Shown here: in pieces, positions 4,460-50,203 of the stretch | Position numbering within the stretch: the stretch's first letter is position 1 | Layout: each line of letters begins with the position of its first letter | Source of the DNA: Chloroflexota bacterium | GTDB lineage: Bacteria > Chloroflexota > UBA6077 > JACCZL01 | Direction: 5' to 3' | Length of the DNA stretch: 64,000 bases | Assembly (NCBI GenBank): GCA_030447245.1 | Contig: JAUJPG010000004.1 | Location: forward strand, 16,843-80,842 | The notes under the pieces: model-generated | Seen by the model: only the letters and a program-made list of their open reading frames with translations | Database searches by the model: none | What the model was told of the DNA's origin: nothing | Made by a program: the position numbers and the translations under genes

Positions 4460-4547
4460 TCATCCGTTTACACTGTGCGGAGTGGCTCGGGTGGGCGGGT
4501 CGTCGACGGGCGACCCGCTCACCCGATCTTTATGTTGAGGATACCAC

Positions 4548-7166: not shown

Positions 7167-8858
7167 ATGCTGGCCGGCGCAATCCTGGCCTTGCTGATCG
7201 GCCTCGGCCTGCCTACAGTTGCGCGGTCACACCCGCTCGGCAACTTCACGGTCAACCTGTACAGTCGGATCGAGCCGGCCGGCGACGGCGTGCGGATCGT
7301 CTACGTCCTGGACATGGCCGAGATCCCAGCCTTCCAGGAGATCGGGGTCGTGGATGCCGACCGCGACGGTCAGACGAGCCGCGCCGAAGAGGAGCAGTAC
7401 GCGACCCAGCGAAGCGAGGAGATCCGCCGCAACCTCCGCCTGGAGCTGAACGGCACGCCGGTGCCTCTCGGATTGATTGAGCGCCAGCTCAGCTTCCCAC
7501 CAGGTCAGGGTGGCCTCGCAACGCTTCGGCTGGACGCGGTCTACTTCGCCCGCCTGCCGAGTGGCCCAGGGGCACCAGTGGACCTGACGTCCCGCGACGA
7601 CAATTTCCCCGGGCGGATCGGCTGGCGCGAGATCGTGGCACGGCCGAGCGCGATCGGTACGGAGCTACTGGCTACCAGCGTGCCGGCAACCGACCAGAGC
7701 GACGAGCTTCGGAGCTACCCGGAAGATCTACTGAGCAGCCCGCTCGACGTCCGAAGTGCGCGCATCTCGTTTGTCCCCGGCGCGGCGCCAGCCGCCCCGC
7801 TTGCCGCGATCGGCATTCGGGCCTCCGACCGAACCCAGGACGCGTTCGCGGCGTTGGTCTCCCGCGAAGAGCTCACGCCCGGGCTGATCGTGTTCTACCT
7901 GCTCTCGGCGATGGTGCTTGGCGCGGGTCACGCGCTGTCACCGGGACACGGCAAGACGGTCGTGGCAGCCTATCTGGTCGGATCGCGCGGGACCGCTCGC
8001 CACGCGGTGTTTCTCGGCATCACGGTCACGGCGACCCACACGATCGGGGTCTACGCACTGGGGCTGGTCACGCTGTACTTGTCCCAGTACATCCTGCCGG
8101 AACGGCTCTACCCGATCCTGCAGGTGGTGTCCGGACTGCTCGTCGTCGGCATCGGGATCTGGCTCTTCATCGCTCGGCTGGCCGGTCTGCCGTGGTTCCC
8201 GCGCCAGCATGGCCGGACGGATGATCATGCCCACGGGCACCGGCACGGCGACGATCATGCCCACGGGCACCCACATGGCGACGGTCATGCCCACGGCCAC
8301 GGGCATGACCATATCCAGGACGGCCACGCGGATCGTGGGCACCAACGGATGCCTGTTGCTGCGACCGCACCTGTACCGATCGCCGTGGGCATGACGGCGA
8401 GCGCAAGTCCCGCTCGTGCGCCGAGCGTGCCGCAAGCTATGCCGTCCACTGCGGTAGTCGCCTCCGCCTCGGGGCACGGGGGACCTCTCCATAGCCACGG
8501 AGGCGCGACGCACTCACACCTGCCGCCCGGAGCTGATGGGGAGCCGGTCACCTGGCGGAGCCTACTCGCGCTCGGAGTCTCGGGCGGTCTACTACCCTGC
8601 CCGTCGGCCCTGGTCGTCCTCCTGAGCGCTATTGCCTTGCAGCGGGTCGCGTTCGGCCTACTGCTAATCGTCGCCTTCAGTGTCGGCCTGGCATCCGTCC
8701 TGGTCGGCATCGGGCTGCTGCTGGTCTTCGCCGGGCGGTTCTTCAACCGCCTCAGCGTGGGAGGGGGCCTCGCCGTGCGCCTGGTCCCCGTCCTGAGCGC
8801 CCTGCTCGTGGTGGTCGCCGGGGTCGTGATCACGGCCCAGGCGCTACCCAGCCTGTAG
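7167..8858 (+). CDS. NicO/RcnA-like nickel/cobalt transporter with N-terminal periplasmic domain and His-rich loop
   Basis: ALSPGHGKTVVAAYLVG motif typical of the RcnA/NicO family, multiple TM helices, His-rich loop DDHAHGHRHGDDHAHGHPHGDGHAHGHGHDH; start ATG 7167 (alternative GTG 7137). Confidence 0.7.
   Translation: MLAGAILALLIGLGLPTVARSHPLGNFTVNLYSRIEPAGDGVRIVYVLDMAEIPAFQEIGVVDADRDGQTSRAEEEQYATQRSEEIRRNLRLELNGTPVPLGLIERQLSFPPGQGGLATLRLDAVYFARLPSGPGAPVDLTSRDDNFPGRIGWREIVARPSAIGTELLATSVPATDQSDELRSYPEDLLSSPLDVRSARISFVPGAAPAAPLAAIGIRASDRTQDAFAALVSREELTPGLIVFYLLSAMVLGAGHALSPGHGKTVVAAYLVGSRGTARHAVFLGITVTATHTIGVYALGLVTLYLSQYILPERLYPILQVVSGLLVVGIGIWLFIARLAGLPWFPRQHGRTDDHAHGHRHGDDHAHGHPHGDGHAHGHGHDHIQDGHADRGHQRMPVAATAPVPIAVGMTASASPARAPSVPQAMPSTAVVASASGHGGPLHSHGGATHSHLPPGADGEPVTWRSLLALGVSGGLLPCPSALVVLLSAIALQRVAFGLLLIVAFSVGLASVLVGIGLLLVFAGRFFNRLSVGGGLAVRLVPVLSALLVVVAGVVITAQALPSL
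8216..8310. repeat. about 30-bp tandem repeats encoding the (D/G)DHAHGH His-rich loop
   Basis: gatcatgcccacgggcac-type units repeated three times in the nucleotide sequence. Confidence 0.7.
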
Positions 8859-8862
8859 CGGG

Positions 8863-9777
8863 TCAGGCACCGAGGGCGGGAGCGGTCGGCGTTGGCAGAT
8901 GTCTAAAGAGGATGGCGGCTTCGCGGACGAGCTTGGCAGCCAGGGCGGCGGTGATGCCGGCCGGATCAACTCCGGGAAGAACTTCCATGACGTCCAGGCC
9001 GACCACGTTCATCTGGCGCAGGCTGTACAGGAAATCGAACAGCTCGCGCGACGTTGGACCGCCGGGCTCGGGGACGCCGGTCCCGGGCGCACCCGCCGGA
9101 TCGAGAACGTCAATATCGATGCTCAAGTAGATTGGCCGATTGCGCAGCCAGGCATAGACGTCATCTGTCAAAGCCAGGGCCAGCTCGGGCGACCTCCAGG
9201 CGCACTCTAGCGAGCGTTGCCACTCGGCGCGGGTGCCGGAGCGGACGCCGAGCAAGATCAGGCAGTCATATCCCCACTCGTCGCCAAGGCGGGCGGCCCA
9301 GGTACCGTGGGCCAGACGCCGTCCGTCAAGCTCGTCAGCAAGATCGAGGTGGGCGTCCAGCGAGATGATCGCGGCATCGCGATAGCGTTGCTTCACGGCT
9401 CGAAAGGCGGCGAGGGTACCAGTGTGCTCGCCGCCGATCATGACCGGAACGCCGCGGCGCGCCAGGATCTGCTCGGTTGCCTGCTCGATCTCGGCGAGCG
9501 CCGCCTCGAGATCCAGGCCGGCAAAGTCGAGATCCCCAAGGTCAGCCAGGCCGCTGCCATTGGACTTGAGGTCGAACAAATCAACGTCCTGGATCGGGCT
9601 GTAGCTCTCGATGTTCTGGGAGGCAGCCCGGACGGCCGCGGGCCCGGCGGCCGTACCCGGGGCACCGGAAACGGTGTACTCGAGGGGCGCGCCGAACAGG
9701 AACAGCCGCGCCCCGCCATCGAGGTCGAGCGGGATGCTACCCCAGAAGGGGTCCGAGGTTGGCGGACGGAGCGGCAT
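8863..9777 (-). CDS. speB: agmatinase (arginase family)
   Basis: Arginase-fold motifs GGEHT, SLDAHLD, SIDIDVLDPA; last gene of the polyamine operon. Confidence 0.8.
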   Translation of the reverse strand: MPLRPPTSDPFWGSIPLDLDGGARLFLFGAPLEYTVSGAPGTAAGPAAVRAASQNIESYSPIQDVDLFDLKSNGSGLADLGDLDFAGLDLEAALAEIEQATEQILARRGVPVMIGGEHTGTLAAFRAVKQRYRDAAIISLDAHLDLADELDGRRLAHGTWAARLGDEWGYDCLILLGVRSGTRAEWQRSLECAWRSPELALALTDDVYAWLRNRPIYLSIDIDVLDPAGAPGTGVPEPGGPTSRELFDFLYSLRQMNVVGLDVMEVLPGVDPAGITAALAAKLVREAAILFRHLPTPTAPALGA

Positions 9778-18413: not shown

Positions 18414-19468
18414 CATGGGACCGCTACGCCGCTCCCACGACCGGGCGGGTGGCGAACGGCCGTGGAGGGTTGACCGTGAAGAAGCGTGTCGCCGGTCCGC
18501 TCGAAGCCATCACCGCGCACCAAGCCGCACTCCCGCAGGGAGGAGATATGGCCTACGGCGTCGCCTTCCTCTGCGCGGTGATGGCGGTGCGGGATGCCTG
18601 GCTGCGTCACGGTGCGCGGGTGGCCGTTGAGGACCTGGTCGGGCGTGCCCTGCGTGACGGAATGCGCCGCGCGACCGACGGGTCTACCTGGCGGCGTGCG
18701 CCCCGCGAAGCTCAGCCACGGCGGCCGTGGCCCCGTCTCGATCGAGAGGATCGGGACAGGGGACAGGGCGGCCGCCCAGGATGTCGCCGTCGATGCCCCG
18801 GGCGAGAACGCCCCGTCGCGGATGCATGAAGCAGGAGCCGTTCGACGGGCCGAAGACGGCGATGCCGCCTTGCGGGCCGTCGTCAGCGAGGTTGCCGAGC
18901 CGTGTGCGCGTCAGCGCCTCGCACGCGCTTCCCTAAAAGTTGTCGTTGTCGTCATCGTTGTCGTTGTCGCCCCCGTTGTCGCCGTGGTCCTCATTGTCGC
19001 CGTGGTTGTCGTTGTCACCGCCACCACCGCCGCCATTGCCAACTCCTCGGCGCCTCGTACGCACCGATGTCGCAGATCGCCATCGCGTTGCCGTCGCCGT
19101 CGATCGGCCGGGAGACGGCGCGCTGGTGGACCGACTCGAAGATGACCGGGTCGCAGGCGTCGATCGCCACGCTGCCGGCAGCAGCGCGTGGGTCTGGGTC
19201 AGCCCGCCGTTGCTCGCGAGCGGGCCGAGCTTCGGGTCGCCACTCGACACGTCGCCGGTCGCGCTCAGACCGCAGGACGCGTCGGTCGAGAGGTTGTGGC
19301 CGCCCTACTGGTAGCCCGAGATGGCCTCGATGAAGCAGTCGGTCGGGATGCCGCGCCATGCCGTTGGCGAAGATGGTGTTGCGGGGCACCGAGGTGCCCT
19401 GGAGAGCCGCGAGGTTGCCGCCGCGCGTGTCCTCGACGTGGCGGCCAGGGTGGCGTTAGAGAGCACTA

Positions 19469-19482
19469 GTGGGTCAGTTCTC
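19469..19482. repeat. left terminal inverted repeat of the IS630-family element
   Basis: gtgggtcagttctc preceded by TA. Confidence 0.6.
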
Positions 19483-19558
19483 GCGAGGGTTGCCAAACGG
19501 GTGTGTGCCTGGCATGCTCTGGCGTCCGTTCGGTCGAGCGAGCGGACGGAGGTCAGCC

Positions 19559-20572
<1,014 letters not shown>

Positions 20573-20887
20573 TGCCCTTGTACACGCGCTAGGCGGCTCC
20601 TGGCCGAACATGGCCGAGTCCGTCCAGGCGCATCCTCGTCCGGGCGCGCCCTGGATGGCCACCACCCCGAAACTGCCCAGCAGGTCATGGACCGCTGGCC
20701 GCCACCGTCCGGGGGCTGGAACGCGGCCCCAACCCCGTTCGTCTGGGGCGGCCACCGTCGGCAGCGCCGCTGGCGGGCCCGCCGCCGGCGGCCGCTCGCG
20801 TCGAGCCGCACGGCCTCGGCGGCTCCGCGGCACTCACCCGTCGCCCACTCCCTCGTCGCCGCTCAACGTATGAACGGCTCTGCGCAT

Positions 20888-20902
20888 GAGAACTGACCCA
20901 CC
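20888..20902. repeat. right terminal inverted repeat of the IS630-family element
   Basis: gagaactgacccacc followed by TA; reverse complement matches the left TIR. Confidence 0.6.
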
Positions 20903-22049
20903 TAGCGTGCGCCATTGCCCTCGTGGAGGACGCCGTGGCCATACCCGCCCCCAATCCTGCTGCTGAAGACCGCGCGGTTGGTGCTGACCGTCACGTTGGT
21001 GAGCGTGGCGACGCCGTCGGCGACGTTGAGGATCCCGCCGCCGTTCCGGGGCCTGGTTGTTGGCGAGCGTGGCGCGATACAGGGCGAGGTTGCCGAGGTT
21101 CTCGATGCCCCCGCCGCTCCCGACGTTGGTGAGCGCCTCGTTGTCCCTGACGGTGACGTCGCTCAGCGACGCGAGGGCTCCACCCGCGGTTCGTCATCCC
21201 GCCGCCCCAGGCGCCGTCGATGACGACGCGGTTGCCTGAGGACGACGTTCGACAGGTTGACCGTTCCGTGGCTGTGGATGCCCGCCGTGGGCGTAGCCGA
21301 CGAAGCCGAAGCCGGGCCTTGCCATTCGTGACCGTCGCCTCCCTGATCTCGAGGGTCGCGCCCGTATTGACGTCGAAGACGCGGTCGCCGGGTCACGTCG
21401 CCGTTCCCGTCGATGATCGTCTGGGTCCAGCGGCCCCCTCGATGCTGGATGCTGGAGCCGGCGATGACGTCGAGGTCGCCCTTCGCGGCGTTGTTGTCGA
21501 CATCGGCCCGCCGCCGTCGGCGCCGCCGATCCCGAGCAGGTACGTCCCGGCTGGCAGGATGATGACGTCCCGGGCCCGCCAAGGCGTTGGCCTCGATGAT
21601 CGCGCCCCGCAGCGAGCAGTTGCCGGGGACATAGAGCAGGTTGTCAGTGGTGGTCGTCACGGTGAAATCGACCGCGTGGGCGGCCCGGGTCGACGTTGCC
21701 GTCCCGCCGATCGTCAGGGTAACGATGATCGCCAGCGCGGCGGATGTACCTCGCTCGCCTATCTCAGCCTCCCATCCGGTCGCTCGCGCTGCGCGAGCCT
21801 ACCTGTTCGGGATCACCTAGGTGAACATCGGCCTGATGTCTGAGATCTAGACGTGCAGGCGACGTGGTTCTCGTTCATCTCCTCTCCGTCGACGACCGCG
21901 ACCAGCCGCGTGGCCGCCAGCCGACTCCATCGGATACCCTCGTCATGCAACCCCCTTCACGAGCTGAACGACGGCGCCCGCCGCGATTCGGCGCGCACGG
22001 CTCACCAACCTGCGACCAGTCTACCGCGTCATGCCCCCCGGCCCCCATG

Positions 22050-22087
22050 GAAGTACGGGGTTTCCGGGGTTTCAGTACGGGCTTTTC
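22050..22087 (-). repeat. GTAC-containing motif, copy 1 (reverse orientation)
   Basis: aagtacggggtttccggggtttcagtacgggctttt is the reverse complement of the AAAGCCCGTACT / AAACCCCGTACT units seen at 44.8 and 48.9 kb. Confidence 0.7.
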
Positions 22088-22290
22088 GCCCTACTGGATC
22101 GTGGACTGGTGCCAGCAGCACGTCGAGGTGTACCGCTGCGGGGAGGCCCCACAGGGAGGGTCAGCCCCGTGGTAGTCACCGGGCGGGGGGGTGCCGCTCG
22201 TGGCAACGCTCGCGGGCGAGGAGGTGCTGACGACGCCGCTCCTGCCCCATTTCGCCTGCCCCTGCCGAGCCTCTGGGCGCCATCGTCCCG
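22085..22290 (+). pseudogene. Uma2-family endonuclease C-terminal remnant (copy A)
   Basis: YWIVDWCQQHVEVYR and LAGEEVLTTPLLPHFACP match the Uma2 C-terminal consensus; N-terminal two thirds absent. Confidence 0.45.
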
Positions 22291-23339
22291 ACCGCGAGCC
22301 GATCGCCCCCAGGGCTCGACGTCCGCCATGGTCGGGCCGCGGTCGTCGATGGGGAGCGCCCCGCGAGGGCCCGGGCCTCGCTCGACGGCCGCGCGCGGTC
22401 GTCCCCGCCGCCGTCAGCGGAGGCGCAGCCGCTCCACGCCCTGGGCCGGTGGCCGCGTAGAGGTACCGCCCGTCGATCCTCAGCGCCAGGTCGGAGATCA
22501 GGCTCAGGTCCTGGTGCCCCAAGTCGGTCCAGGTGGCCCCGCCGTCGAGGCTGGCCTTCACCCCGCTGCCGATCGGGGTCTCGCCTACACCGCCGCCGCG
22601 CTCGTAGCCGTTGAGGCCGACGTCCCGCTGGCAGGGTGTACGCCAGGTCACCATCTGGACGTTTGGTTCGGCCCCGTCCGCTCGGCTCTGCGAACGCCAG
22701 ATCTCGGTCCAGCTTGACCGTCGGTCGCTACAGGGACGAGCCCCCGCCCTGACCGCGACTGCGCGTCGACCGCGGTGGCTCTGCTCGGCCACGGCAGCAT
22801 CGGGACCCACGTCGCCGCGTCGTCGCGCGGCACCGAGGTCCCGACCTTGGCGGTCGTGTGATCGCTCGGGTCGACCGCCACGCCGACCGCACCCAGCGAC
22901 TGCCGGGGATCAGGCCGCGGTCGCTCAGGCTGACCGCGATCGCGCTGAAGCTCTGCTGCTCCGGCCACGGCAGCATCGGGACCCACGTCACCGCGTCGTC
23001 GCGCGACACCGAGGTCCCGACGTACAGCGTCGTGTGATCGCTCGGGTCGACCGCCACGCCAACCCCACCCCAGCGACGGCCGGGGAATCCGGGCGGGAGG
23101 GCGACCGACGCCCAGGTCACGCCGCCGTCGTCGCTGCGGGACAGCCCGCTCGCCGTCTTCGCGAAGAAGGCACCGCTGGCGGGCGTGAAGAGCTCGGAGG
23201 CGCTCTCGCCGAGCCCGGTCGGCTCCCAGTCCCACGCGGGCGCCTCCTGCGCCCCCAGGCCGCCACCCGTCCCGAGCGTCGCCAGCACTGCCACCAGCGC
23301 GACCGCCCGGCGTGCCATTCCCCAGCCGAGGCCCATCAT
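22100..23339 (-). pseudogene. BNR-repeat (beta-propeller, sialidase/Ycf48-like) secreted protein, frameshifted
   Basis: Signal peptide MMGLGWGMARRAVALVAVLATLG, BNR motifs SRSDDGGVTWAS, SVSRDDAVTWVPM, SLDGGATWTDL spread across three overlapping minus-strand frames. Confidence 0.5.
22781..23085. repeat. about 120-bp imperfect direct repeat inside the BNR pseudogene
   Basis: ctgctcggccacggcagcatcgggacccacgtcgccgcgtcgtcgcgcg... recurs about 170 bp downstream with a few substitutions. Confidence 0.6.
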
Positions 23340-23449
23340 GCCTGTCCCTCCCGGTTTCCGTGGTGCGCACCCCGTCGATCGCGCTTCGGCGCGCACGGGT
23401 CGCCGATCCATGACCACTCTACCGCGTCGGCCTCCCCCCGGTCCCCCGT

Positions 23450-23479
23450 GGAAGTACGGGGTTTCAGTACGGGCTTTTC
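23450..23479 (-). repeat. GTAC-containing motif, copy 2 (reverse orientation)
   Basis: gaagtacggggtttcagtacgggcttttcc. Confidence 0.7.
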
Positions 23480-23482
23480 CCC

Positions 23483-23813
23483 GTGGTTGCCAGCGGCGGG
23501 TACCTGCGTACCGCGCCCAAGCTGGTGGTCGGGGTGCTCTCACCGGGGCGGTGCACGAGCGGCGCGACCGAGAGGAGCAGCTCGCGCTCTGCGGGCGGCA
23601 GGGGGTCCGGGAGCACTGGATCGTGGACTGGCGCCAGCAGCGTCTCGACGTCTATCACCGTGGGCAAGCCCGTCGGGAGGGGCCCGTGGTCGTCACCGCG
23701 CCGAGGCAAGTATGCCGCACGTCGCGACGCTCACCGGCGAGGAGGTGCTGACGACGCCCCTGCTGCCCGAGTTCGCCTGCCCCCTGCCGAGCCTCTGGGC
23801 GCCGTCGTCCTGA
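23483..23813 (+). pseudogene. Uma2-family endonuclease C-terminal remnant (copy B), frameshifted
   Basis: PKLVVGVLSPG, EHWIVDWRQQRLDVYHRG and LTGEEVLTTPLLPEFACPLPSLWA lie in three different frames. Confidence 0.55.
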
Positions 23814-23936
23814 CCGCGGATCCATCGCGCGCTTACCCTTGCTCGGCGGCGGCGCAGGTCACCGCCAGCGCGGCCCTCGCGAGCCGCGTCAGGCTCGTCT
23901 CGGCCTCCGATCGCACAGCGCGCACGGTCCCGTCTG

Positions 23937-24482
23937 TCAGCGGTCCGCGATGACGTAGGTGAACGCCAGCGTGTTGTCAGAGATCTGCGACATGCAGGCG
24001 GCAATGTCGTCGTTCCTGTCCTCGTTTGGGCCGACCAGGATCAGCCCGTGCGCCTCGTCATCGGGGTTGTGGATCATCGGGGGCACCCAGTCGAGGATCT
24101 GGTTGAAGAAGCCGCTCCGGTTCTGGTCCCGCGCGTCGTCCTAGGGGATCGCGTAGGCGGGGTTACCCCTATCCCAGTCGACCGTCGGACGCCTGAGCCG
24201 GAGCCAGCAGGAAATCTGGAACTCGCCGGCGTGAGAGGCCCGCCCGCCGTTCGGTGCTTGCTCGTGGTACAGCACCTCGCGGTAGCGGAGCACCGCCTCG
24301 ACCGGCGGCAGGCTATGGCCGTGCAGGGCGCTGAAGTCGAACTTGAAGGCCAGCTGCCGGTACTCGTGCCAGGTGCAGCCGCTGAAGAAGCCGACCGTCG
24401 ACGGCCTCGCTTGCTGCAACGTCACCCAGCATGACCCGGCGACCGGAGGTCCCCCCGTCATGCTGGGAATCGTTCTAGCCAC
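23937..24482 (-). pseudogene. secreted Cys-containing family-A protein, 5'-truncated copy with internal stop
   Basis: LAFKFDFSALHG...CWLRLRRPTVDW then, after a TAG and a frame change, FNQILDWVPPMIHNPDDEAHGLILVGPNEDRNDDIAACMSQISDNTLAFTYVIADR; closely matches the C-terminal half of 44934..45977. Confidence 0.6.
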
Positions 24483-24546
24483 AAAAGTGCCGCGGCGCTG
24501 ATGCGCTGGACCGACCAGGACGTGGTGGCCTCACCAGGTACAATGT
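24471..24546. repeat. about 70-bp repeat, copy 2 (see 18345..18413)
   Basis: Shared cgttctag...ccgaccaggacg.ggt.gc core. Confidence 0.5.
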
Positions 24547-41798: not shown

Positions 41799-42205
41799 AT
41801 GTGATGGGACCGTGACCACAGGGTTCTCCCCGCGGCCGCTCGGCAGATGTACACTGCCGCCGTCAGACGCGGCCGAGCCGAATGGTGAGGCCGGGTGACA
41901 GCGGCAGGCCGTTCCTTCGCGAGTCGCCGCTGGTTTTCCGCAGTTGGGGCGGCGGCCAACGCCCCGTTCGTGGTCTGGCCGGGCAGCCCGGGAGGCGCAA
42001 GCTTCTCGGGCTGTTTTCTTGTCCGCCGCCCGGGGCGCTGGCGAGGCTCGGATTGGGACATCCCTCCTGTGACCCCGTACATTTACCGGGTCAGAGCAGA
42101 CAGCGTGGTATAGAGTAGTCTCACGGCAACCGGCCACTGCCGGAGGCGTCCCGCACCCTGCGCAGGGTGCCCCCGGGGCGAGTGGCTGGTGGGGCACAGC
42201 GCCAG

Positions 42206-44542
42206 ATGGGCTCGAACCGACGACGGGACAATCTCCCCGACTTCCAATCGGCCTTCGTTGGTCGCGGGCGGCACCTTGTCGAGGTCGCGCGGCTGCTTCG
42301 GACCGAGCGGCTGGTGACCTTGACCGGGCCGCCCGGTGTGGGCAAGACACGGCTGGCGCTCCGCGTCGCGAGCACGATGAGAAGCCGGTACGCCGACGGC
42401 GTCTGGCTCGTCGAGCTGGCGGCGATCGCCGAACCGGCAATGGTGGCGCACCGAGTAGCGAGGACGCTCGCCGTACTTCCCCGGCCAGGTCGGGCCCTAC
42501 TCGACGAGCTGGCGGCGCTGCTCCAGGATCGGCGCGCTTTGCTGGTGCTCGACAACTGCGAGCATGTCCTGGACGCCTGCGCGAGACTTGCCGATCGCCT
42601 GCTGCGTGCCTGCCCTGAGCTGGCGATCCTGACGACGAGCCGCCAGTCGCTCGGGCTCGCCGGTGAGTGGGCGTGGCTGGTGCCGCCACTGTCGGCGCCA
42701 CCAGTTGGCGGGCTCGGCAACGGCGCGCCGCTGGGCGAGCGCGACGCGATCGAGCGGTATGAGGCCTTCGAGCTCTTCGTAGAGCGCGCCCGGAGAGCCT
42801 CCCCGAGCTTCGCGCTGGACCAAGGCACCGCCGCGGCGGCGGCCCAGATCTGCTGCCGCCTGGATGGACTGCCGCTCGCCATCGAGCTGGCGGCGGCTCG
42901 CACGAGCAACCTGAAGGTCGAGGAGATCGCGGCCCTGCTCGACGACCGCTTCACTCTGCTGACGGCCAGTCCGGACGCAACGCCGACCGGCCAACGGTCG
43001 CTTCGAGCGACCCTGGACTGGAGCCACGATCTGCTGTCAGAGGCGGAGCAGGTCCTGTTCCGACGGCTGGCCGTGTTCGTCGGCGGCTGGACGCTGGAGG
43101 CGGCCGAAGCGGTGTGCGCGATCGACGGCGGATTACCCTCGATCGTCGATCTGATTTCGGGCCTGGTGGACCAGTCGCTGGTGGTGGCAGATGAGCGGGG
43201 TGGCGAATTCCGGTATCGGCTACTGGAGACGCTTCGCGAGTACGGACTGGAGCGGCTGCGCGCGGCGGGCGAAGAGGAGGGCCTGCGCGACGCGCACCTC
43301 GACTGGCTGCTGCGCTTCACCGAGGATGCCGAGCCCGCGCTGCGTGGGGCACAGCAGGCCGACTGGCTGGACCGGCTCGAAGTCGAGCACGACAACCTGC
43401 GGGCGGGACTCGGCTGGTGTCTCGGGCGCGGCTCGGCAGAGTCGGGACTGCGCCTGTGCTGGGCGGTCTGGCGCTTCTGGCTGACCCGCAACCATCCCGC
43501 CGAGGGGCTGGCGTGTCTGGCGCGGGTGCTCGGCCTGGAACGGGCAAAGGCGGAGCCCGCGTTGCACTTCGCTGGACTGTTTGCCGCCGGCCGGCTTGCC
43601 TACGTGGCAGGCGATCCAGAGACCGCGCGTCGGTCGCTCGAGGAGGCGCTCGCGATCGCAAGGGAGCTGGACCACCGAGAGGATATCGCCGGCGCCCTGA
43701 CTCAGCTCGGGCATCTCGCACGCGAGCGGGGCGATTACGCCACCGCGCGACGGCTGTACGAGGAGAGCCTCTGCCTTCGGCAGGAGGCCGGTGATCGGCG
43801 ACTGATCGCGATCTCGCTCGGCAGCCTCGGGCGGGCGGCCTACGGCCAGGGCAACCTGGCCGAGGCGCGGCAGCTAGCCGAAGGGAGCATCCACCTGAGT
43901 CGCACGGCTGGCGACCCGCGCGACCTTGGGACGTTGCTCGTGTTCCTCGGCGACGTTGCCAGTGAGCAAGGCGACCGCGACGCGGCGCGGGCATACTACG
44001 CCGAGGCGTCGGCCATCATCGAGCAGCTCCGAGATCGCCAGCTCCTGGCACAGCTCCTCGAAGGTTTCGCGGCGCTCGCGGCCGACGAGGATCGAGGACA
44101 GCGGGCACTGCGCCTGGCCGGCGCGGCGGCCGGCCTGCGCGAGTCGATCGGTGTCTTGCTCCAGCGTACCGAGCGTCATCGGCTGGAGCGCCGGATCGAT
44201 CCACTCCGCCGAACACTCGGGACGGACCGCTTCATGGCCCTCTGGGCCGAGGGCCGGGCCATGCCGATCGCGGACGCCATCGGCTACGCACTCGACGTGG
44301 ATCAGGTGCCCGATGCCGCGGCGGCCGTCCGGGCCGCCGCGGCCGAGCTGGGCCTGACGCCAAGCGAGCAGCGGATCACGCTGTTGCTCGGGCAAGGATT
44401 CAGCAACCGTCACATCGCCGCGACGCTGGAGGTCTCCGAGCGGACGGTTGAGTGGCACGTGGGCAATCTCCTGGACAAGCTGGGGCTAGCGTCGCGGGTC
44501 CAGGTGGCCGTGTGGGTCGTCGAGCACGGATTGGCGGGCTGA
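42206..44542 (+). CDS. STAND-type ATPase / LuxR-family transcriptional regulator
   Basis: Walker A LTGPPGVGKTRLAL, long TPR-like helical middle region, C-terminal LuxR HTH (LTPSEQRITLLLGQGFSNRHIAATLEVSERTVEWHVGNLLDKLG). Confidence 0.75.
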   Translation: MGSNRRRDNLPDFQSAFVGRGRHLVEVARLLRTERLVTLTGPPGVGKTRLALRVASTMRSRYADGVWLVELAAIAEPAMVAHRVARTLAVLPRPGRALLDELAALLQDRRALLVLDNCEHVLDACARLADRLLRACPELAILTTSRQSLGLAGEWAWLVPPLSAPPVGGLGNGAPLGERDAIERYEAFELFVERARRASPSFALDQGTAAAAAQICCRLDGLPLAIELAAARTSNLKVEEIAALLDDRFTLLTASPDATPTGQRSLRATLDWSHDLLSEAEQVLFRRLAVFVGGWTLEAAEAVCAIDGGLPSIVDLISGLVDQSLVVADERGGEFRYRLLETLREYGLERLRAAGEEEGLRDAHLDWLLRFTEDAEPALRGAQQADWLDRLEVEHDNLRAGLGWCLGRGSAESGLRLCWAVWRFWLTRNHPAEGLACLARVLGLERAKAEPALHFAGLFAAGRLAYVAGDPETARRSLEEALAIARELDHREDIAGALTQLGHLARERGDYATARRLYEESLCLRQEAGDRRLIAISLGSLGRAAYGQGNLAEARQLAEGSIHLSRTAGDPRDLGTLLVFLGDVASEQGDRDAARAYYAEASAIIEQLRDRQLLAQLLEGFAALAADEDRGQRALRLAGAAAGLRESIGVLLQRTERHRLERRIDPLRRTLGTDRFMALWAEGRAMPIADAIGYALDVDQVPDAAAAVRAAAAELGLTPSEQRITLLLGQGFSNRHIAATLEVSERTVEWHVGNLLDKLGLASRVQVAVWVVEHGLAG

Positions 44543-44798
44543 ACGCCAGCAAACGCGACTCGACGGCTCCAATGCGCCGACTATAGACGGACCGCCGTTC
44601 GGCGACGCACCGTGCGAGAGTCCGTACCCCTACCGGCGGCCGGCGTACCTCGGGTCGTGGCGTGGCGACGCGCCCCCGCGCGCAGTGTGCCCTCCGAGGA
44701 CAGCACCCTCCAGCTGTGCTCGACCGACGCCCGGCACAGAGGACGACGCCAGATTCGAGCCTCCGATTGCCGACCGAAGGTTGCACGCCGCGTAGCGA

Positions 44799-44843
44799 AC
44801 AGTACGGAGAACCCCGTACTTAAACCCCGTACTAGTACGGGGG
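44799..44843 (+). repeat. GTAC-containing motif, copy 3, ending in perfect 18-bp palindrome CCCCGTACTAGTACGGGG
   Basis: acagtacggagaaccccgtacttaaaccccgtactagtacgggg, about 90 bp upstream of 44934. Confidence 0.7.
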
Positions 44844-44933
44844 CGTCAATGGCAGCACAGGCCGTAGAGTGGTGTCAGGACGGTGTGCCATCAAGTCGGA
44901 GCGGAAGCTCCCGCGCAATGAGGAGGATTTCTC

Positions 44934-45977
44934 GTGAAGCCTACAGGACTCGCTCGAATCGCCCTGACGGCAACGGTCGCGCTCGGCGCCATCTGGAGTG
45001 CGGGCGGCGACGGCGGGCCGAGCACATCGTTCGCCTCGCTCGAGGCGGCGTCGCACCCCGAGGCGGCGCGGCAGGTTGCGACGCCGACGGTACCCGGCCT
45101 ACCTGAGAGCGCTCCGCTGCGCGTCGTCGACACGTTCGACGCCGTCGACAAGGGCGGGCGGGTCGCGCCCGGGCCCCAGGCCATCCCGCCCAACAGGGGT
45201 GACGAGCTCGTCGTGCCGGTCGAGCCCGACGACAACACGGGGTTCACCGACCGGATCAAGCATGACCCGAGCGACCGCATCGAGGACCTGGTCACGACCA
45301 CCGGCCTGTCGGTCATCCCCGAGGCGCTCCGGCCGGGCACGCACCCCTTCCCTGACGAGCCGCCCTTCACGCCGGTCGGGCCGATGGCGAACCCGCACGT
45401 GTGGGGGATGCGCTGGGTAAGCGAGGAACTCGAGGACCGCAGGGGCTATAACGACCCATGCAGGGAAAGCAACTCGACCGACCCGGTGCGCCCGAACTCG
45501 GTCGGCTTTCGCAACGTCAACAAGGTCGACGACCTCTGCAGCCTTAACCCGTTTTACCAGCTGGCTTTCAAGTTCGACTTCAGCACGCTGCGCCAGGCCA
45601 GCTTCCTTCCGATCAGCGCCGCGCTCAAGTTCCACGAAACCGTCTATGAAGAGCGCGATTCAAACGGCAACTATGTTCCCTTCGTCGGATTCCAGAACAC
45701 TTGCTCGCTCCGGCTCGGACGGCCGAATGGGCCCTGGAACGCCCCGCACGTAGGGTACCGAGGGCTCCCGTACACCGACCCACGGGAACAGAACCGGATC
45801 GGCGAGTTCAACGACATTCTGGACTGGGTGGTCACGATGGTTCGGAATCCCGCGGAGGAGGCTAAGGGGCTGATCCTCATCGGCAAGAGCGAGGACCGGA
45901 ACCCCGACAACGCCGCCTGCATGTCCCAGATCTCGAACATCGAGCTCGTGTTCACCTACGTGATCGCGGACCGTTGA
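44934..45977 (+). CDS. secreted Cys-containing hypothetical protein, family A (intact copy)
   Basis: Signal peptide MKPTGLARIALTATVALGAIWSA; conserved LAFKFDFS, CSLRLGRP, ILDWV, GLILIGKSEDRNPDNAACMSQISNIELVFTYVIADR shared with three other copies in the window. Confidence 0.6.
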   Translation: MKPTGLARIALTATVALGAIWSAGGDGGPSTSFASLEAASHPEAARQVATPTVPGLPESAPLRVVDTFDAVDKGGRVAPGPQAIPPNRGDELVVPVEPDDNTGFTDRIKHDPSDRIEDLVTTTGLSVIPEALRPGTHPFPDEPPFTPVGPMANPHVWGMRWVSEELEDRRGYNDPCRESNSTDPVRPNSVGFRNVNKVDDLCSLNPFYQLAFKFDFSTLRQASFLPISAALKFHETVYEERDSNGNYVPFVGFQNTCSLRLGRPNGPWNAPHVGYRGLPYTDPREQNRIGEFNDILDWVVTMVRNPAEEAKGLILIGKSEDRNPDNAACMSQISNIELVFTYVIADR

Positions 45978-46014
45978 GCGCTAGCACCGTGAAGACCGTA
46001 CATCGGAGTTCGAA

Positions 46015-47376
46015 ATGCGACTGACCACGCTCACCCGGGCCGCGCTTGCGGCGACGATCGTCCTCACGCTCGGCGGGCCGGCTCGTCCGGCACGGGCGGA
46101 CGAGTTCACCGTGACGCGCACCGACGACACCACCACCTGCACCCCCGGCGACTGCTCGCTGCGCGGGGCGATCATCGCCGCCAACACCTCGGCCGGACCG
46201 GACGTGATCTTGCTGCCGGCCGGCCTCTACATCCTGACGATCGGCGGCGCGGACGGCGGCGTCCTGGCCGCCAACGACGCCCAGAAAGGGGACCTCGACA
46301 TCGTCAATGGCTCCAGCATCACCATCGTCGGGGATGGCCCCGATACGACGATCATCGACGGCAATGGCGACATGACCCTCGATCGCGTCTTCGACATCGG
46401 CGCGGGCGGCAGGCTCCAGCTCGGGGGCGCGACGATCATGAACGGCCGCGCCGGAGTCGGCTTCCAGAGCCATGCCCACGGCGCCGGCATCCACAACCAC
46501 GGCTCGCTGATCCTGCAGAACGTCGTCATCAGCGACAACCGCGTCATGCTGACCGGCTGGGGCGGGGGCGGCATCACCAACGCGGACGCGCCCCAGAAGG
46601 CCTCGGCGTCGCTGAACAACGTCACCATCAGGGACAACGAGGCTCTCGAAGACACGGGCGGTGGCGCCATCGAGAACCTGAGCTTCCTGCAGCTCGAGAA
46701 CAGCACGCTGGCCAACAATCGAGCGCGCAATGGCGGCGGGATCGAGAACAAGGGAGTCAACGCCCTGGCCGGCCTGACCAACGTGACGATCAGCGATAAC
46801 CGCGCGGTCTCCAACGGGACCCCGACCACCGGCTTCGGCGGCGGTATCTCCAACCGAGACGGCGCGACCCTCTCCATGACCCACGTGACGCTGGCCGGCA
46901 ACAGCGCGGACACCCGCGGGGGTAACCTGGCGGCGCTGGACAAGGGCAAGTCCGTGACGCCCATCAACACGATCTTCGCCGACGGCAGCCCTGCCGATTG
47001 CTTCATCGAGGCGACCGGCGGCTACGTCTCCAACGGCACCAATCTCGCGACCGACGCCAACTGCAACCTGGCCGGCGCGGGCGACCGGCCGGGCGGCCAG
47101 GTGCAGCTCGGACCGTTGGCGGACAACGGCGGCCTGACCCCGACCCGCGCGCTGCTGCCGGCATTCCCTGACCACGGCAACGAAGCGATCGACGCCTGCA
47201 ACCCGGCGTCGTCGACGGACGCCGACCAGCGCGGCGAGCCCCGTCCCAGGGACGGCGACGGCGACGGCACGGCGATCTGTGACATGGGCGCCTACGAGAT
47301 GCAGCGCGCCGAACGCGGGCATGACAACGACAACGAGAACCACGACAACGACAACCATGACAACGACAACGACTAG
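46015..47376 (+). CDS. CSLREA-domain right-handed beta-helix surface protein (choice-of-anchor-type C-terminal region) with Asp/Asn-rich tail
   Basis: Signal peptide, CSLRGAIIAAN motif, repeated N.T....N beta-helix rungs, C-terminal DNGGLTPTRALLP...AIDACNP...DGDGDGTAICDMGAYE, tail HDNDNENHDNDNHDNDND. Confidence 0.7.
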   Translation: MRLTTLTRAALAATIVLTLGGPARPARADEFTVTRTDDTTTCTPGDCSLRGAIIAANTSAGPDVILLPAGLYILTIGGADGGVLAANDAQKGDLDIVNGSSITIVGDGPDTTIIDGNGDMTLDRVFDIGAGGRLQLGGATIMNGRAGVGFQSHAHGAGIHNHGSLILQNVVISDNRVMLTGWGGGGITNADAPQKASASLNNVTIRDNEALEDTGGGAIENLSFLQLENSTLANNRARNGGGIENKGVNALAGLTNVTISDNRAVSNGTPTTGFGGGISNRDGATLSMTHVTLAGNSADTRGGNLAALDKGKSVTPINTIFADGSPADCFIEATGGYVSNGTNLATDANCNLAGAGDRPGGQVQLGPLADNGGLTPTRALLPAFPDHGNEAIDACNPASSTDADQRGEPRPRDGDGDGTAICDMGAYEMQRAERGHDNDNENHDNDNHDNDND

Positions 47377-47423
47377 AGACCTCCTGCCGAGCGTCGGCCG
47401 GGGTAAGCGGGAGGCACACGCTG

Positions 47424-48197
47424 ATGGAGACCGAACATTCGATTGTGGCGCCAGGGCATGGGCGCGACCGATCGCGGTGGCTGCGCTGGACGGCGCTGCT
47501 GGGCCTGGTGGTCGCGCTGACCAGTCTGCCGGGCGTCGGCCTGGCGGATGACGACGAGAACAAGAAGAAGGACAAGCAGACCGCGAGCCTGCGAGAGTCC
47601 AGCCAACAGCAGACGATCGGACCAATCGACGACGCCGATCGGATCAGGATCCCTGACCTGACCGAGAAGCCGGGCCTGCCGCCGGACACGGTCGCCACCC
47701 CGGTCGACAACTTTGACGATCGGGTCAGGATCCCTGACCTGACCGAGAAGTCAGGTCTGCCGCCGGACACGGTCGCCACACCGATCGACCACGACCGGGT
47801 CGAGCAGATCGGCCAGCTGGTCGGCGAGAACACCTGGACGGACCGGGCCCCGATGCCCACCTCGCGCTTCGGGCTTGGGCTGGCGGCGGCGCAAAACGGG
47901 AAGCTCTACGCCGTCGGCGGCTACAACAACGGCGGCGCGCAGGCCACGGTCGAGGAGTACGACCCGGACCTCAACACCTGGAGGGCTCGGGTCCCGCTGC
48001 CCACCCCGCGCTCCGGGCTCGGGCTGGCGGTGGCGTCCAACGGCAGGCTCTACGCCGTCGGCGGCAACAACGGCAGCGCCTTTCTGGCCACGGTCGAGGA
48101 GTACGACCCGGCCACCAACACCTGGACGGCCCGGGCCCCACTGCCCACCGCGCGCTACGCGCTCGGGCTGGCGGCGGCGCAACCCTGCAAGCTCTAG
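47424..48197 (+). CDS. Kelch-repeat protein, truncated by an in-frame stop
   Basis: Signal/TM segment, two 27-aa tandem repeats RIPDLTEK.GLPPDTVATP, then Kelch blades (GKLYAVGG...EEYDP.TNTW); TAG at 48195 replaces the Tyr of the next LYAVGG. Confidence 0.6.
   Translation: METEHSIVAPGHGRDRSRWLRWTALLGLVVALTSLPGVGLADDDENKKKDKQTASLRESSQQQTIGPIDDADRIRIPDLTEKPGLPPDTVATPVDNFDDRVRIPDLTEKSGLPPDTVATPIDHDRVEQIGQLVGENTWTDRAPMPTSRFGLGLAAAQNGKLYAVGGYNNGGAQATVEEYDPDLNTWRARVPLPTPRSGLGLAVASNGRLYAVGGNNGSAFLATVEEYDPATNTWTARAPLPTARYALGLAAAQPCKL
47640..47795. repeat. near-identical tandem repeat (2 x about 78 bp) inside the Kelch gene
   Basis: cggatcaggatccctgacctgaccgagaag... repeated with a few substitutions. 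Confidence 0.7.
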
Positions 48198-48410
48198 GCC
48201 GTCGGCGGCGACATCGGCGGCGCGCAGGCCACGGTCGAGGAGTACGACCCGGCCACCAACACCTGGACGGCCCGGGCCCCGCTGCCCACCCCCCGCTCCA
48301 GCCTCGGGCTGGCGGCGGCGCCCAACGGCAAGCTGTACGCCGTCGGCCATCGGCGGCGCGCAGGCCACCATCGAGTACGACCCGAACGCCGACACCCTGG
48401 ACCGCTGAAC
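48198..48410 (+). pseudogene. degenerate continuation of the Kelch repeats after the premature stop
   Basis: AVGGDIGGAQATVEEYDPATNTWTARAPLPTPRSSLGLAAAPNGKLYAVG then frame loss. Confidence 0.5.
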
Positions 48411-48529
48411 GCCCGCGCCGCTCGCTGCTGTTCAATCGAGCCCGCCTCGCCCATGACCCAGACCTGGCCAAGCAGCAGGGCGCCGTCCCACCCTGGTCGT
48501 TCCCGCTGTACGCAGGATGAGCGAGCACG

Positions 48530-48875
48530 GTGCGCTCGTCAGCGATCTCGACCATGACCCAGACCCGGACCTTCCGCTCACGGGCGATGATCCGTTACCC
48601 GACCGGCAACGGGGCCGTCAGGATCAGGACTGTCGGCGACGGCGAGCTGACCCAGAATGGGTTCGGCTCGCCAGCGAAGTCGACAGGAGGGCAAGCCGCG
48701 CAACGCGGTGCCCGACTCTCGCACTCGGTGCCCGCCTTCCGCGTCAACCGGATGATCCGCTACTGATGCCAACAATGGCGTCCTGCTGCGCGGCTCCGAC
48801 GAGACGCTTTGGACCCAGGACAGCGCGTGCGTCTCCAACATCAGGCTCTCGTTCACCTACGAGATCTCCGATTAG
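48530..48875 (+). pseudogene. family-A C-terminal remnant
   Basis: Ends ...DSACVSNIRLSFTYEISD, matching the AACMSQISNIELVFTYVIAD C-terminus; upstream part degenerate with internal duplications. Confidence 0.5.
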
Positions 48876-48912
48876 CAGCCCTCGGAGACGCGTCTCGGCG
48901 CGTCCAACGGCG

Positions 48913-48947
48913 AAAACCCCGTACTAAAAGCCCGTACTAGTACGGGG
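48913..48947 (+). repeat. GTAC-containing motif, copy 4, ending in palindrome CCCGTACTAGTACGGG
   Basis: aaaaccccgtactaaaagcccgtactagtacgggg, between the family-A remnant and the CARDB-like gene. Confidence 0.7.
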
Positions 48948-49048
48948 ACGCCGGAGCGCGGTGCCGTATCGTGGTCCCAGGGCACCGCGGGTGCGCGCCG
49001 AACGGGTGCGCGGTCGCCTCGCACCGCGGTTCGGGGGAGGATCTGAGG

Positions 49049-49480
49049 ATGACGCGATCTCCGTGGCAGCGGCGGCTGCTCTCGGCGCTGCTGGCCGCCA
49101 GCGTCGTGGCAGCGGGACTGCCCGGCGAGAGCTGGGCGCAGGCCCGACCGGACCTGGAGCTAACCTACGGCGGCTTATTGCCCGACAAGCTCCGACTCGT
49201 CAAGTTCACGGTCAAGAACGTCGGCACTGCGCCCTCGTCAGCGACCAATAAGGTCGGGGTGATTACCTCCGAGCCCGAGCCGACGCCGTCGTTCCAAGGG
49301 CTCGACCTGCCGCCCCTCAAGCCGGGAGAGAGCAAGGACGTGTTCTACACCCTTGCCGCCGACTGCAACGGGCACGTCGTCCAGGCGCTGGTCAACGACC
49401 CGCTTGACCTGAACACAGCGAACAACGCTGTCGAGGACAAGCAGGGTCTGCTCGGGCGCACCGGTCGCCACGTCGCCTGA
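49049..49480 (+). CDS. small secreted CARDB-like (Ig-fold) protein
   Basis: Signal peptide MTRSPWQRRLLSALLAASVVAAGLPGESWA after a GGGGGAGGA RBS; LVKFTVKNVGTAPS...ANNAVED resembles a CARDB domain. Confidence 0.5.
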   Translation: MTRSPWQRRLLSALLAASVVAAGLPGESWAQARPDLELTYGGLLPDKLRLVKFTVKNVGTAPSSATNKVGVITSEPEPTPSFQGLDLPPLKPGESKDVFYTLAADCNGHVVQALVNDPLDLNTANNAVEDKQGLLGRTGRHVA

Positions 49481-49510: not shown

Positions 49511-50203
49511 GTGCGCCACCTGCAACGTGCCGGGCGGAGTTTCGACCCGGGCCTGCACACGCTGTCCCTCCGCCGGGCGGCCTTCAAGACGCTGAGACGC
49601 CACAGGGTCGAGGGCGATTGCTACATCGGGCACGAAATCGTCGACGAGGCGCAGAACCCGCCCTTTCCACTCATGGGCGGCACCGGAATATCAGTTCTGA
49701 GAGCCCCGATCTTAACTCGTGACTGTCAGACTAATGGTGTCTGGCACGCGGCGTTCAGGTTCAACCTGTCCGAAATCCGGGGGCGGTGGGCGGCCGGGCG
49801 GTTGTCCGTGCTCACCATGGAGCTGACATTCGAAGAGACTCCGTACCTCTCGTCCCTCGACGGCATCACTGGCAAGAGGGAGTTCATGATTAACCTCTGG
49901 CGTCCGCCCACCTTCGACTTTAGTCAGCACGCGCCGACCGAGACCTGCTGGCCGCGGCTGGCCCGTCCGACGGTCGACTGGAGCCGCACGGGCATCGTGG
50001 TCCCGAACGACGTCCTCCTTGAGGCGGGACAGATCGGCACCTTCCCGCTGCTGCATCAGATCGGCGATATGCTGCGCTACCCGGAGAACGACGGGCTCGG
50101 ATTCCTGATCCTCGGCCACAACGAGGAGATGCACTTCAACGACGCGGAGTGCGTCTCGAAGATCGACAACGTCACACTCAACGTGACCTACCACGTCCAC
50201 TAA
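49511..50203 (+). CDS. family-A paralogue (divergent, no obvious signal peptide in the called frame)
   Basis: AFRFNLSEIRG, ETCWPRLARPTVDWSRTG, GFLILGHNEEMHFNDAECVSKIDNVTLNVTYHVH align with the other family-A copies; may be fused to or frameshifted from the upstream CARDB ORF. Confidence 0.55.
   Translation: MRHLQRAGRSFDPGLHTLSLRRAAFKTLRRHRVEGDCYIGHEIVDEAQNPPFPLMGGTGISVLRAPILTRDCQTNGVWHAAFRFNLSEIRGRWAAGRLSVLTMELTFEETPYLSSLDGITGKREFMINLWRPPTFDFSQHAPTETCWPRLARPTVDWSRTGIVVPNDVLLEAGQIGTFPLLHQIGDMLRYPENDGLGFLILGHNEEMHFNDAECVSKIDNVTLNVTYHVH

Follow-up and report, generated by a model that had tools for sequence, protein, structure and literature searches.

What is the role of a short palindromic motif containing GTAC that recurs beside secreted-protein genes in a Chloroflexota bacterium? 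The motif had been noticed at four sites in a 64-kb stretch of contig JAUJPG010000004.1 (assembly GCA_030447245.1), hereafter the window, and we refer to the two on the forward strand as S1 (44801..44842) and S2 (48914..48947) and to the two on the reverse strand as S3 (22043..22085) and S4 (23444..23477). The first-pass annotation had offered three readings of it: a shared operator for a dimeric regulator, with the adjacent STAND/LuxR protein as candidate, a repetitive extragenic palindromic or miniature inverted-repeat transposable (REP/MITE-like) element, or a recombination site linking two accessory regions. Our results favour the shared operator and do not support the other two. The motif is most likely new but of a familiar kind, namely the lineage-specific operator, defining a small regulon, of an uncharacterised STAND-LuxR regulator. 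We are fairly confident of the general claim that it is a transcription-factor binding array in promoters. The narrower proposal, that it is a half-site array of the adjacent MalT-like STAND-LuxR regulator (42167-44542) acting as an activator, is in our judgement probable on sequence grounds.

A sharp motif with one architecture

We found the reported sequences in place at all four sites. With one mismatch or fewer, AAASCCCGTACT matched 8 times against 0.11 expected from dinucleotide-preserving shuffles; none of 100 shuffles reached 8, and all of these matches fell within the four sites. Exact CCCGTACT occurred 10 times (0.96 expected), every time inside the same sites. When three mismatches were allowed, the count (45) was close to background (40.8), so the window holds only sharp copies and no halo of degenerate ones. 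GTAC alone was not enriched (176 observed, 188 expected).

Alignment of the four sites in motif orientation revealed a common architecture. A unit (A)AAsCCCGTACT is followed exactly 13 bp downstream by a second such unit, and a third, inverted unit abuts unit 2, so that units 2 and 3 form an 18-bp core, CCCCGT-N6-ACGGGG. Upstream of this core, 13 bp away, stand one or more direct (A)AACCCCGTAC copies. The inverted unit is present in the reverse sites as well (CCCCGTGGA at 23444-23452 and CCCCATGGA at 22043-22051), and therefore all four share the core with at most one mismatch. Searching the window for the core at this stringency gave five matches against 0.55 expected. The fifth is a new site, S0 (42073..42090, forward strand), which precedes the regulator gene, and CCCCGTAC is confined to these five sites, with S0 as its sole copy outside the four already reported.

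The sites differ in their details. S1 begins with a degenerate inverted unit, AGTACGGA (44801-44808), followed by the direct units GAACCCCGTACT (44809-44820) and AAACCCCGTACT (44822-44833), and its core at 44825-44842 is the perfect 18-mer CCCCGTACTAGTACGGGG. At S2 the direct units are AAACCCCGTACT (48914-48925) and AAAGCCCGTACT (48927-48938), and the core at 48930-48947 reads GCCCGTACTAGTACGGGG. The motif had been said to be completed twice to a perfect palindrome; this holds for S1, whereas S2 is perfect only in its inner 16 bp. S3 carries AAAGCCCGTACT (22074-22085), AAACCCCGTACT (22052-22063) and the core CCCCGTACTTCCATGGGG (22043-22060), with a 9-bp partial duplication of the slippage kind, GAAACCCCG, between units 1 and 2 (within 22061-22072). 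S4 has the same pair, AAAGCCCGTACT (23466-23477) and AAACCCCGTACT (23453-23464), and the core CCCCGTACTTCCACGGGG (23444-23461). S0 is a dyad only, its core CCCCGTACATTTACCGGG having one mismatch and lying inside the imperfect palindrome TGACCCCGTACATTTACCGGGTCA. S1, S2 and S4 thus each combine an inverted unit with two direct units set 13 bp apart, and so does L132b, a site in another assembly described below.

The inner six bases of the core are a perfect palindrome at S1 and nearly so at S2, but not at S3 and S4 (ACTTCC), and the core spacers vary between sites (ACTAGT, ACTTCC, ACATTT). This variation bears on the idea of a site-specific recombinase site, in which two inverted binding sites round a 6-bp spacer, with arm-type direct repeats, would link the two accessory regions. 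An inverted pair round a 6-bp spacer with accessory direct repeats does formally resemble the core and arm sites of tyrosine recombinases, and the two islands that carry the sites are paralogous. However, recombination between sites whose spacers differ would be blocked, similarity between the sites is limited to the motif and a −10-like box, and there was no recombinase or integrase among the open reading frames (ORFs) scanned. Nor does recombination account for the fixed distance to that box or for the linkage to LuxR regulators elsewhere, and we give this idea almost no weight.

Outside the window, a scan of 241 million metagenome records with the two-unit pattern CCCGTACTNAAASCCCGTACT returned only an unrelated repeat of gut Agathobacter, and viral contigs scanned for the core yielded unrelated hairpins only. 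The loose pattern CCCGTACT-N5-CCCGTACT found at least 120 unrelated 13-bp tandem arrays in a genome collection. In the searchable literature the motif strings appeared only by chance in primers and never as a described site, and the 16-bp palindrome was absent.

The sites have a promoter-like geometry

In a four-way alignment the motif hardly varied, while its flanks and the gene families that follow it diverged. The feature that recurs beyond the motif is a TAnnnT hexamer located 19-22 nt after the core at all five window sites. It reads TAGAGT at S0 (42111-42116, 20 nt from the core), S1 (44865..44870, 22 nt) and S4 (23416-23421, 22 nt), TAGACT at S3 (22018-22023, 19 nt) and TATCGT at S2 (48967-48972, 19 nt), and at S1-S4 it is followed each time by GGT. 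The 64 kb contain just four copies of TAGAGT, three of them behind a motif, and the combined pattern CCCGTAC-N20-45-TAGASTNGT gave 5 matches against 0.00 expected. When the cores from two further assemblies (L131 and L132, below) are included, 7 of 8 have a TAnnnT hexamer 19-22 nt past the core end.

From its sequence we take this hexamer to be a putative −10 element. The −35 regions, judged by eye, are poor (0-3 of 6 matches), S1 has no TTGACA-like −35, and a promoter scan of 44500-49200, which holds S1 and S2, found no sigma-70 consensus promoter. With TAnnnT as −10, the core would span about −49 to −32, with its centre at about −40.5 to −43.5, and would abut or overlap the poor −35 region. 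At S1, S2 and S4 a GGAGG-type ribosome-binding site (RBS) and a start codon follow about 90-100 nt after the core, and the encoded N-terminus is signal-peptide-like; at S3 a short ORF comes first and then a pseudogene. All four reported sites are oriented toward a secreted-protein gene or pseudogene downstream on the same strand.

A conserved box, CGTGCGCGCCGAA, was also seen about 25 nt past the −10-like hexamer at S2 (48991-49002, forward), S3 (21986-22000, reverse) and S4 (23385-23399, reverse), whereas S1 and S0 lack it. Its possible roles include a second operator and an element of the 5′ untranslated region.

Two other readings of these promoter regions were considered. The first is that the units themselves form a promoter of the extracytoplasmic function (ECF) sigma type, in which one unit would supply AAC as the −35 and the following unit CGTA as the −10. 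The AAAC...CGTA of the units recalls the SigW-type consensus TGAAAC-N16-CGTA, and the unit spacing puts AAC and CGT 15 nt apart. That spacer, however, is 15 nt and not 16-17; AAC is missing in L131, where the unit spacing is 12 bp; and neither the window nor L131 or L132 yielded a gene for an ECF sigma or anti-sigma factor. The reading also leaves both the dyad core and the conserved TAnnnT box unaccounted for, and we regard it as very unlikely.

The second is that the palindrome acts in RNA, as a 3′-end hairpin of the upstream gene (a terminator without a U-tract) or as a 5′ structure, with the direct repeats as alternative pairings. Hairpins are predicted at −14 to −29 kcal/mol with z-scores of −0.6 to −3.8, unit 1 of S1 and S2 can pair with unit 3 in place of unit 2, and the terminator scan detected S2 on the minus strand. 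In addition, each site is preceded on its own strand by a gene or pseudogene, and the inner bases change symmetrically between genomes (GTAC..GTAC versus GTGC..GCAC). Against this, the sense strand has no U-tract, the T-runs being antisense, where no gene converges, so that the sites do not qualify as intrinsic terminators. Inner pairing is lacking at S0, S3 and S4, an Rfam scan of the whole window gave no matches, and neither the 19-22 nt distance to TAnnnT nor the unpaired direct repeats would be explained. The outer stem keeps its sequence from gene to gene and in all three assemblies instead of covarying in outline, which points to base-specific recognition by a protein rather than to structure. 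An RNA role is therefore improbable.

A STAND-LuxR regulator is encoded beside the motif here and in other assemblies

If the motif is a protein-binding array, its most obvious candidate partner is the product of the gene at 42167..44542 (forward strand), which is preceded by S0 and ends 257 bp upstream of S1. The start codon of this gene is ambiguous (GTG at 42167 or ATG at 42207). The 791-amino-acid protein consists of a P-loop NTPase (AAA_22/NB-ARC), a TPR region of the MalT-like type and, at its C-terminus, a GerE/LuxR helix-turn-helix (HTH) domain, with matches at 1.1e-13 for GerE, 1.5e-12 for TPR_MalT, 2.1e-9 for AAA_22 and 1.1e-5 for NB-ARC. Its HTH is closest to the DNA-binding domains of NarL, VraR and DosR. 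The NCBIfam MalT equivalog model scored 34 bits against a cutoff of 537, matching over the HTH only, and the protein is therefore not a MalT orthologue. No close relative is known; even the best homologues, uncharacterised proteins from metagenome-assembled genomes (MAGs) of Chloroflexi, Anaerolineae and Rubrobacter, share only about 50% identity with it. In a scan of about 55 window ORFs we found no other DNA-binding protein. The surroundings are of the chromosomal housekeeping kind, with obg, typA, ddl, glycogen phosphorylase and polyamine genes.

We compared the locus with homologues that share the recognition helix RTVEWHVxN of the regulator, five of which had DNA available (L130-L134). 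In two of the five, L131 and L132, the same architecture lies immediately downstream of the regulator gene. L132 (P0016, GCA_973843005.1) carries AAAAACCCCGTACC and, 13 bp on, GGCCCCGTGCT abutting AGCACGGGG, which together form a perfect 18-bp dyad. This array, AAAAACCCCGTACC-GCGGCCCCGTGCTAGCACGGGG, is followed after 21 nt by TACGGT, and a second core lies 58 bp upstream. L131 (P0031, ENA ERZ1758302) has four direct units at 12-bp spacing, then CCCCGTGTGCGCACGGGG, 21 nt and TACACT, and the site precedes a second STAND regulator gene. Of 134 loci, together about 1 Mb and in large part high-GC actinomycete DNA, only these two contain the exact core. Across assemblies the outer CCCCGT/ACGGGG is invariant, and the inner bases vary symmetrically (GTAC/GTAC, GTGC/GCAC, GTGG/CCAC). 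Sites in other genomes thus differ in sequence and keep the architecture, as is expected of evolving binding sites and not of mobile copies.

The L132 site also heads a cluster of secreted-protein genes. Eight of its nine genes encode secreted CARDB and family-A proteins, 23-47% identical to the family-A domain found in the window (described below); this domain occurs in 8 of the 9 tandem genes and in seven is fused to a CARDB-like N-terminal domain.

Repeats of other kinds were observed at further loci. In L134 (GCA_013695975.1), the gene for the closest regulator homologue (P0002) is followed at 2290-2370 not by the core but by a long inverted repeat, GGTCGTAGGGG...CCCCTACGACC, whose arms are about 57 nt apart. 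The L130 contig (GCA_973843005.1) has four tandem STAND-LuxR genes, each preceded by GGCTATACTG, as well as palindromic inserts made of simple repeats, (GATGGAC)n...(GTCCATC)n and (GGACGGA)n...(TCCGTCC)n, between and inside these genes (4208-4539 and 8203-9096). In L045 (Actinomycetota MAG SYMT01000322.1, 5849-5990, minus strand) there are about ten tandem 13-bp units GAACCCCGTACT(T/C), the later copies of which equal unit 1 of S1, and then three copies of GGGCAACCACGGGGGGATTGCC; this array lies upstream of an LD-carboxypeptidase-like gene, and no STAND-LuxR gene was present in the 8 kb covered.

The putative position of the core over a poor −35 would be that of a class II activator and matches the Actinoplanes and MalT precedents discussed below, and on this basis we propose the adjacent STAND-LuxR protein as the likely binder. 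The fixed −10-like geometry, the presence of S0 at the regulator's own promoter and the recurrence of the site beside homologous regulators in two further assemblies speak for this assignment, as had been suggested in the first-pass annotation. Several observations weigh against it. The L130, L133 and L134 regulator loci do not contain CCCCGT-N6-ACGGGG despite similar recognition helices, and therefore the recognition helix does not predict the site; L133 even carries cargo genes with no core. The direct-repeat spacing of 12-13 bp is not one helical turn. Finally, the tendency of the palindromes to fold as hairpins downstream of co-directional genes and pseudogenes, noted above, would also allow a role in RNA.

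The three coreless loci bear in addition on whether the operator might serve a different DNA-binding protein encoded elsewhere, or whether the adjacent regulator might act as a repressor that occludes the −35 region. A position over the −35 suits repression equally well, and L132 also has a gene for a small GerE protein that stands alone and shares the recognition helix. On the other hand, poor −35s are typical of activator-dependent promoters, and the site stands beside this regulator subfamily in three independent assemblies. We consider a different binder or a repressor unlikely, though it deserves to be kept in mind, and activation by the adjacent regulator remains the reading that we prefer.

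Proposed target genes lie in one island and in its decayed paralogue

The genes behind the forward sites encode secreted proteins of several kinds. The first gene behind S1 (44934..45977, forward) encodes a secreted family-A protein of 347 amino acids with a signal-peptide-like N-terminus, and is followed by genes for a beta-helix protein (CSLREA/choice-of-anchor-Q, 46015-47376, forward) and a Kelch protein (47424-48197, forward). Behind S2 come a CARDB-like secreted protein (49049-49480, forward) and a second family-A protein (49511-50203, forward). Between the Kelch gene and S2, at 48200-48875, we observed more Kelch repeats in another frame and a family-A C-terminal end (...VSNIRLSFTYEISD*), which suggests a frameshifted Kelch and family-A gene, or sequencing errors.

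Family A is a rare secreted family. Its C-terminal domain of about 170-200 amino acids has conserved cysteines and ends in ...C.S.I.NI.L.F.Y.V (44934-45977, 49511-50203 and 23940-24530 in the window; 3558-12392 in L132). It is matched by no Pfam or NCBIfam model, and word-indexed searches for homologues returned almost nothing; with an exhaustive profile search, 79 of 1.84 billion cluster representatives were recovered at E ≤ 1e-3. An AlphaFold model built from a three-sequence alignment (mean predicted local distance difference test score 48.6) was too poor for a fold search.

The reverse sites face genes that have decayed. The first-pass annotation placed two sites before secreted-protein genes and two before remnants of Uma2 genes. 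The former pair stands, but in the latter the orientation had been misread, and S3 and S4 face minus-strand genes or pseudogenes. S3 faces a decayed beta-helix pseudogene (21747->19042, reverse), which is split by an IS630-like transposase remnant into 21747->20929 and 19431->19042. Behind S4 lies a frameshifted gene for a BNR-like secreted protein (ATG at 23339, reverse; RBS GGGAGGGA), and a family-A pseudogene with an in-frame stop is located at 24530->23940 (reverse). The Uma2 fragments lie behind the two sites on the opposite strand and have lost their 5′ halves; therefore, they are not targets of S3 or S4.

The region 19000-24530 as a whole is a decayed paralogue of the island at 44.8-50.2 kb, and includes the two Uma2 C-terminal remnants. 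Its GC content is raised (0.71-0.73), and between 17.7 and 24.5 kb almost no ORF has the GC pattern at third codon positions expected of coding sequence, the sole exception being a fragment of the family-A pseudogene (24141-24530).

This neighbourhood bears on the idea of a mobile origin, in which the motif would be a REP/MITE-like element, a cassette of the 'mobile promoter' type or a transposable-element end that has spread between the islands. S3 and S4 sit about 1.4-1.5 kb apart in a duplicated segment that includes the Uma2 remnants, an IS630-like remnant is nearby, and transposase binding sites typically include subterminal direct repeats. The similarity between S3 and S4 breaks off no more than 2 bp from the distal edge of the motif, which speaks for this idea. 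The deletion by which S3 and S4 differ ends there too, as is expected if the motif is constrained and the adjoining Uma2 remnant is not. Beyond the S3/S4 duplication, however, similarity between sites extends over only about 45 bp plus the −10 box, with no terminal inverted repeats, target duplications or partner end. The window has five sites in 64 kb, all in one orientation relative to the downstream gene, with no degenerate halo and no further copies, and the metagenome and viral-contig scans gave only unrelated repeats and hairpins. A mobile element is thus highly improbable, and we return to the regulator-bound array as the preferred explanation.

A proposed mechanism and its significance

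If the adjacent regulator does bind the array, the following sequence of events can be envisaged. A signal together with ATP would open the nucleotide-binding domain of the regulator and allow the protein to multimerise. Its C-terminal HTH domains would then bind the core and the upstream repeats cooperatively, the dyad being taken by an HTH pair and the direct repeats by further protomers. The promoter-proximal protomer would recruit RNA polymerase where a usable −35 is missing (class II activation), and transcription would start 31-36 nt from the core's 3′ end. The predicted regulon comprises the regulator's own gene, through S0, and the secreted-protein operons (family A, CARDB-like, beta-helix, Kelch and BNR-like).

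A wider idea, which we put forward tentatively and consider rather doubtful, is that this is a new conserved module of uncultured high-GC soil bacteria, in which an autoregulating STAND-LuxR ATPase switches on expanding tandem families of CARDB and family-A proteins via CCCCGT arrays. The non-helical spacing might then reflect an oligomeric STAND platform that wraps promoter DNA.

Should the preferred reading be correct, it would give one of the very numerous, almost wholly uncharacterised STAND-LuxR regulators of Chloroflexi- and Actinobacteria-like bacteria a concrete operator sequence and a predicted regulon of small size, and would tie that regulator to a rare secreted-protein family without known function. 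The locus would also make a convenient test system, with one regulator, five promoters and natural variants that have a perfect or a degenerate third half-site and 19- or 22-nt spacing. It could reveal the way in which oligomers of the MalT type recognise arrays that mix direct with inverted sites.

Comparison with known regulators

GlnR, PhoP and SARP boxes have an 11-bp periodicity. We considered and dropped these as models for the array because both the periodicity and the half-site sequences mismatch.

The HTH of the regulator is nearest to those of NarL, VraR and DosR, and proteins of this type act as dimers on inverted repeats that contain GC and are of similar length. The NarL 7-2-7 site consists of inverted TACYYMT heptamers 2 bp apart, and the DosR site is a 20-bp palindrome. 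The present core reads CCCCGTAC-TA-GTACGGGG, with GTAC toward the dyad centre and no heptamer consensus, whereas TAC lies on the outside in the NarL site. Furthermore, NarL and DosR are response regulators and not STAND ATPases.

A closer parallel in protein architecture is offered by the MalT promoters of E. coli and Klebsiella. Direct-repeat boxes, reportedly described by Vidal-Ingigliardi and colleagues in 1991, are said to be a hallmark of these promoters. E. coli MalT undergoes inducer- and ATP-dependent multimerisation, which leads to cooperative MalT-box binding and recruitment of RNA polymerase (PMC4381067). The two systems have in common a regulator that combines a P-loop nucleotide-binding oligomerisation domain, a TPR-like sensor and a C-terminal LuxR HTH, several short sites per promoter, some of them in direct repeat, and, as predicted for the present sites, a proximal site over a poor −35 region. 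They differ in the half-site, which is GGGGA(T/G)GAGG (or GGATGA) in the MalT box and (A)AACCCCGTRY here, so that the present motif falls outside a strict definition of the MalT box. In addition, the proximal element here is a true dyad with a 6-bp centre, and the cargo consists of secreted proteins and not of maltodextrin genes.

The nearest precedent for the arrangement as a whole comes from Actinoplanes sp. SE50/110, where a MalT-like LuxR regulator switches on 17 promoters within its own genomic island via a palindrome that overlaps the −35, with its 3′ end 34.4 ± 1 nt from the transcription start site (PMC7567727). There, too, a LuxR-family MalT-like regulator is encoded within the island that it controls, the −35-overlapping palindrome ends about 34 nt from the transcription start, compared with the 31-36 nt that we infer, and the motif is conserved beside homologous regions in related genomes. 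The Actinoplanes palindrome (TCATCC-N5-GGATGA) has a different half-site sequence and spacing, and upstream direct repeats are not described there; that case is backed by transcription start site maps, deletion and overexpression, while ours is a prediction from sequence. General concepts are unchanged by the present locus, since a LuxR-type factor on a dyad over the −35, beside its own gene, is what these systems would lead one to expect.

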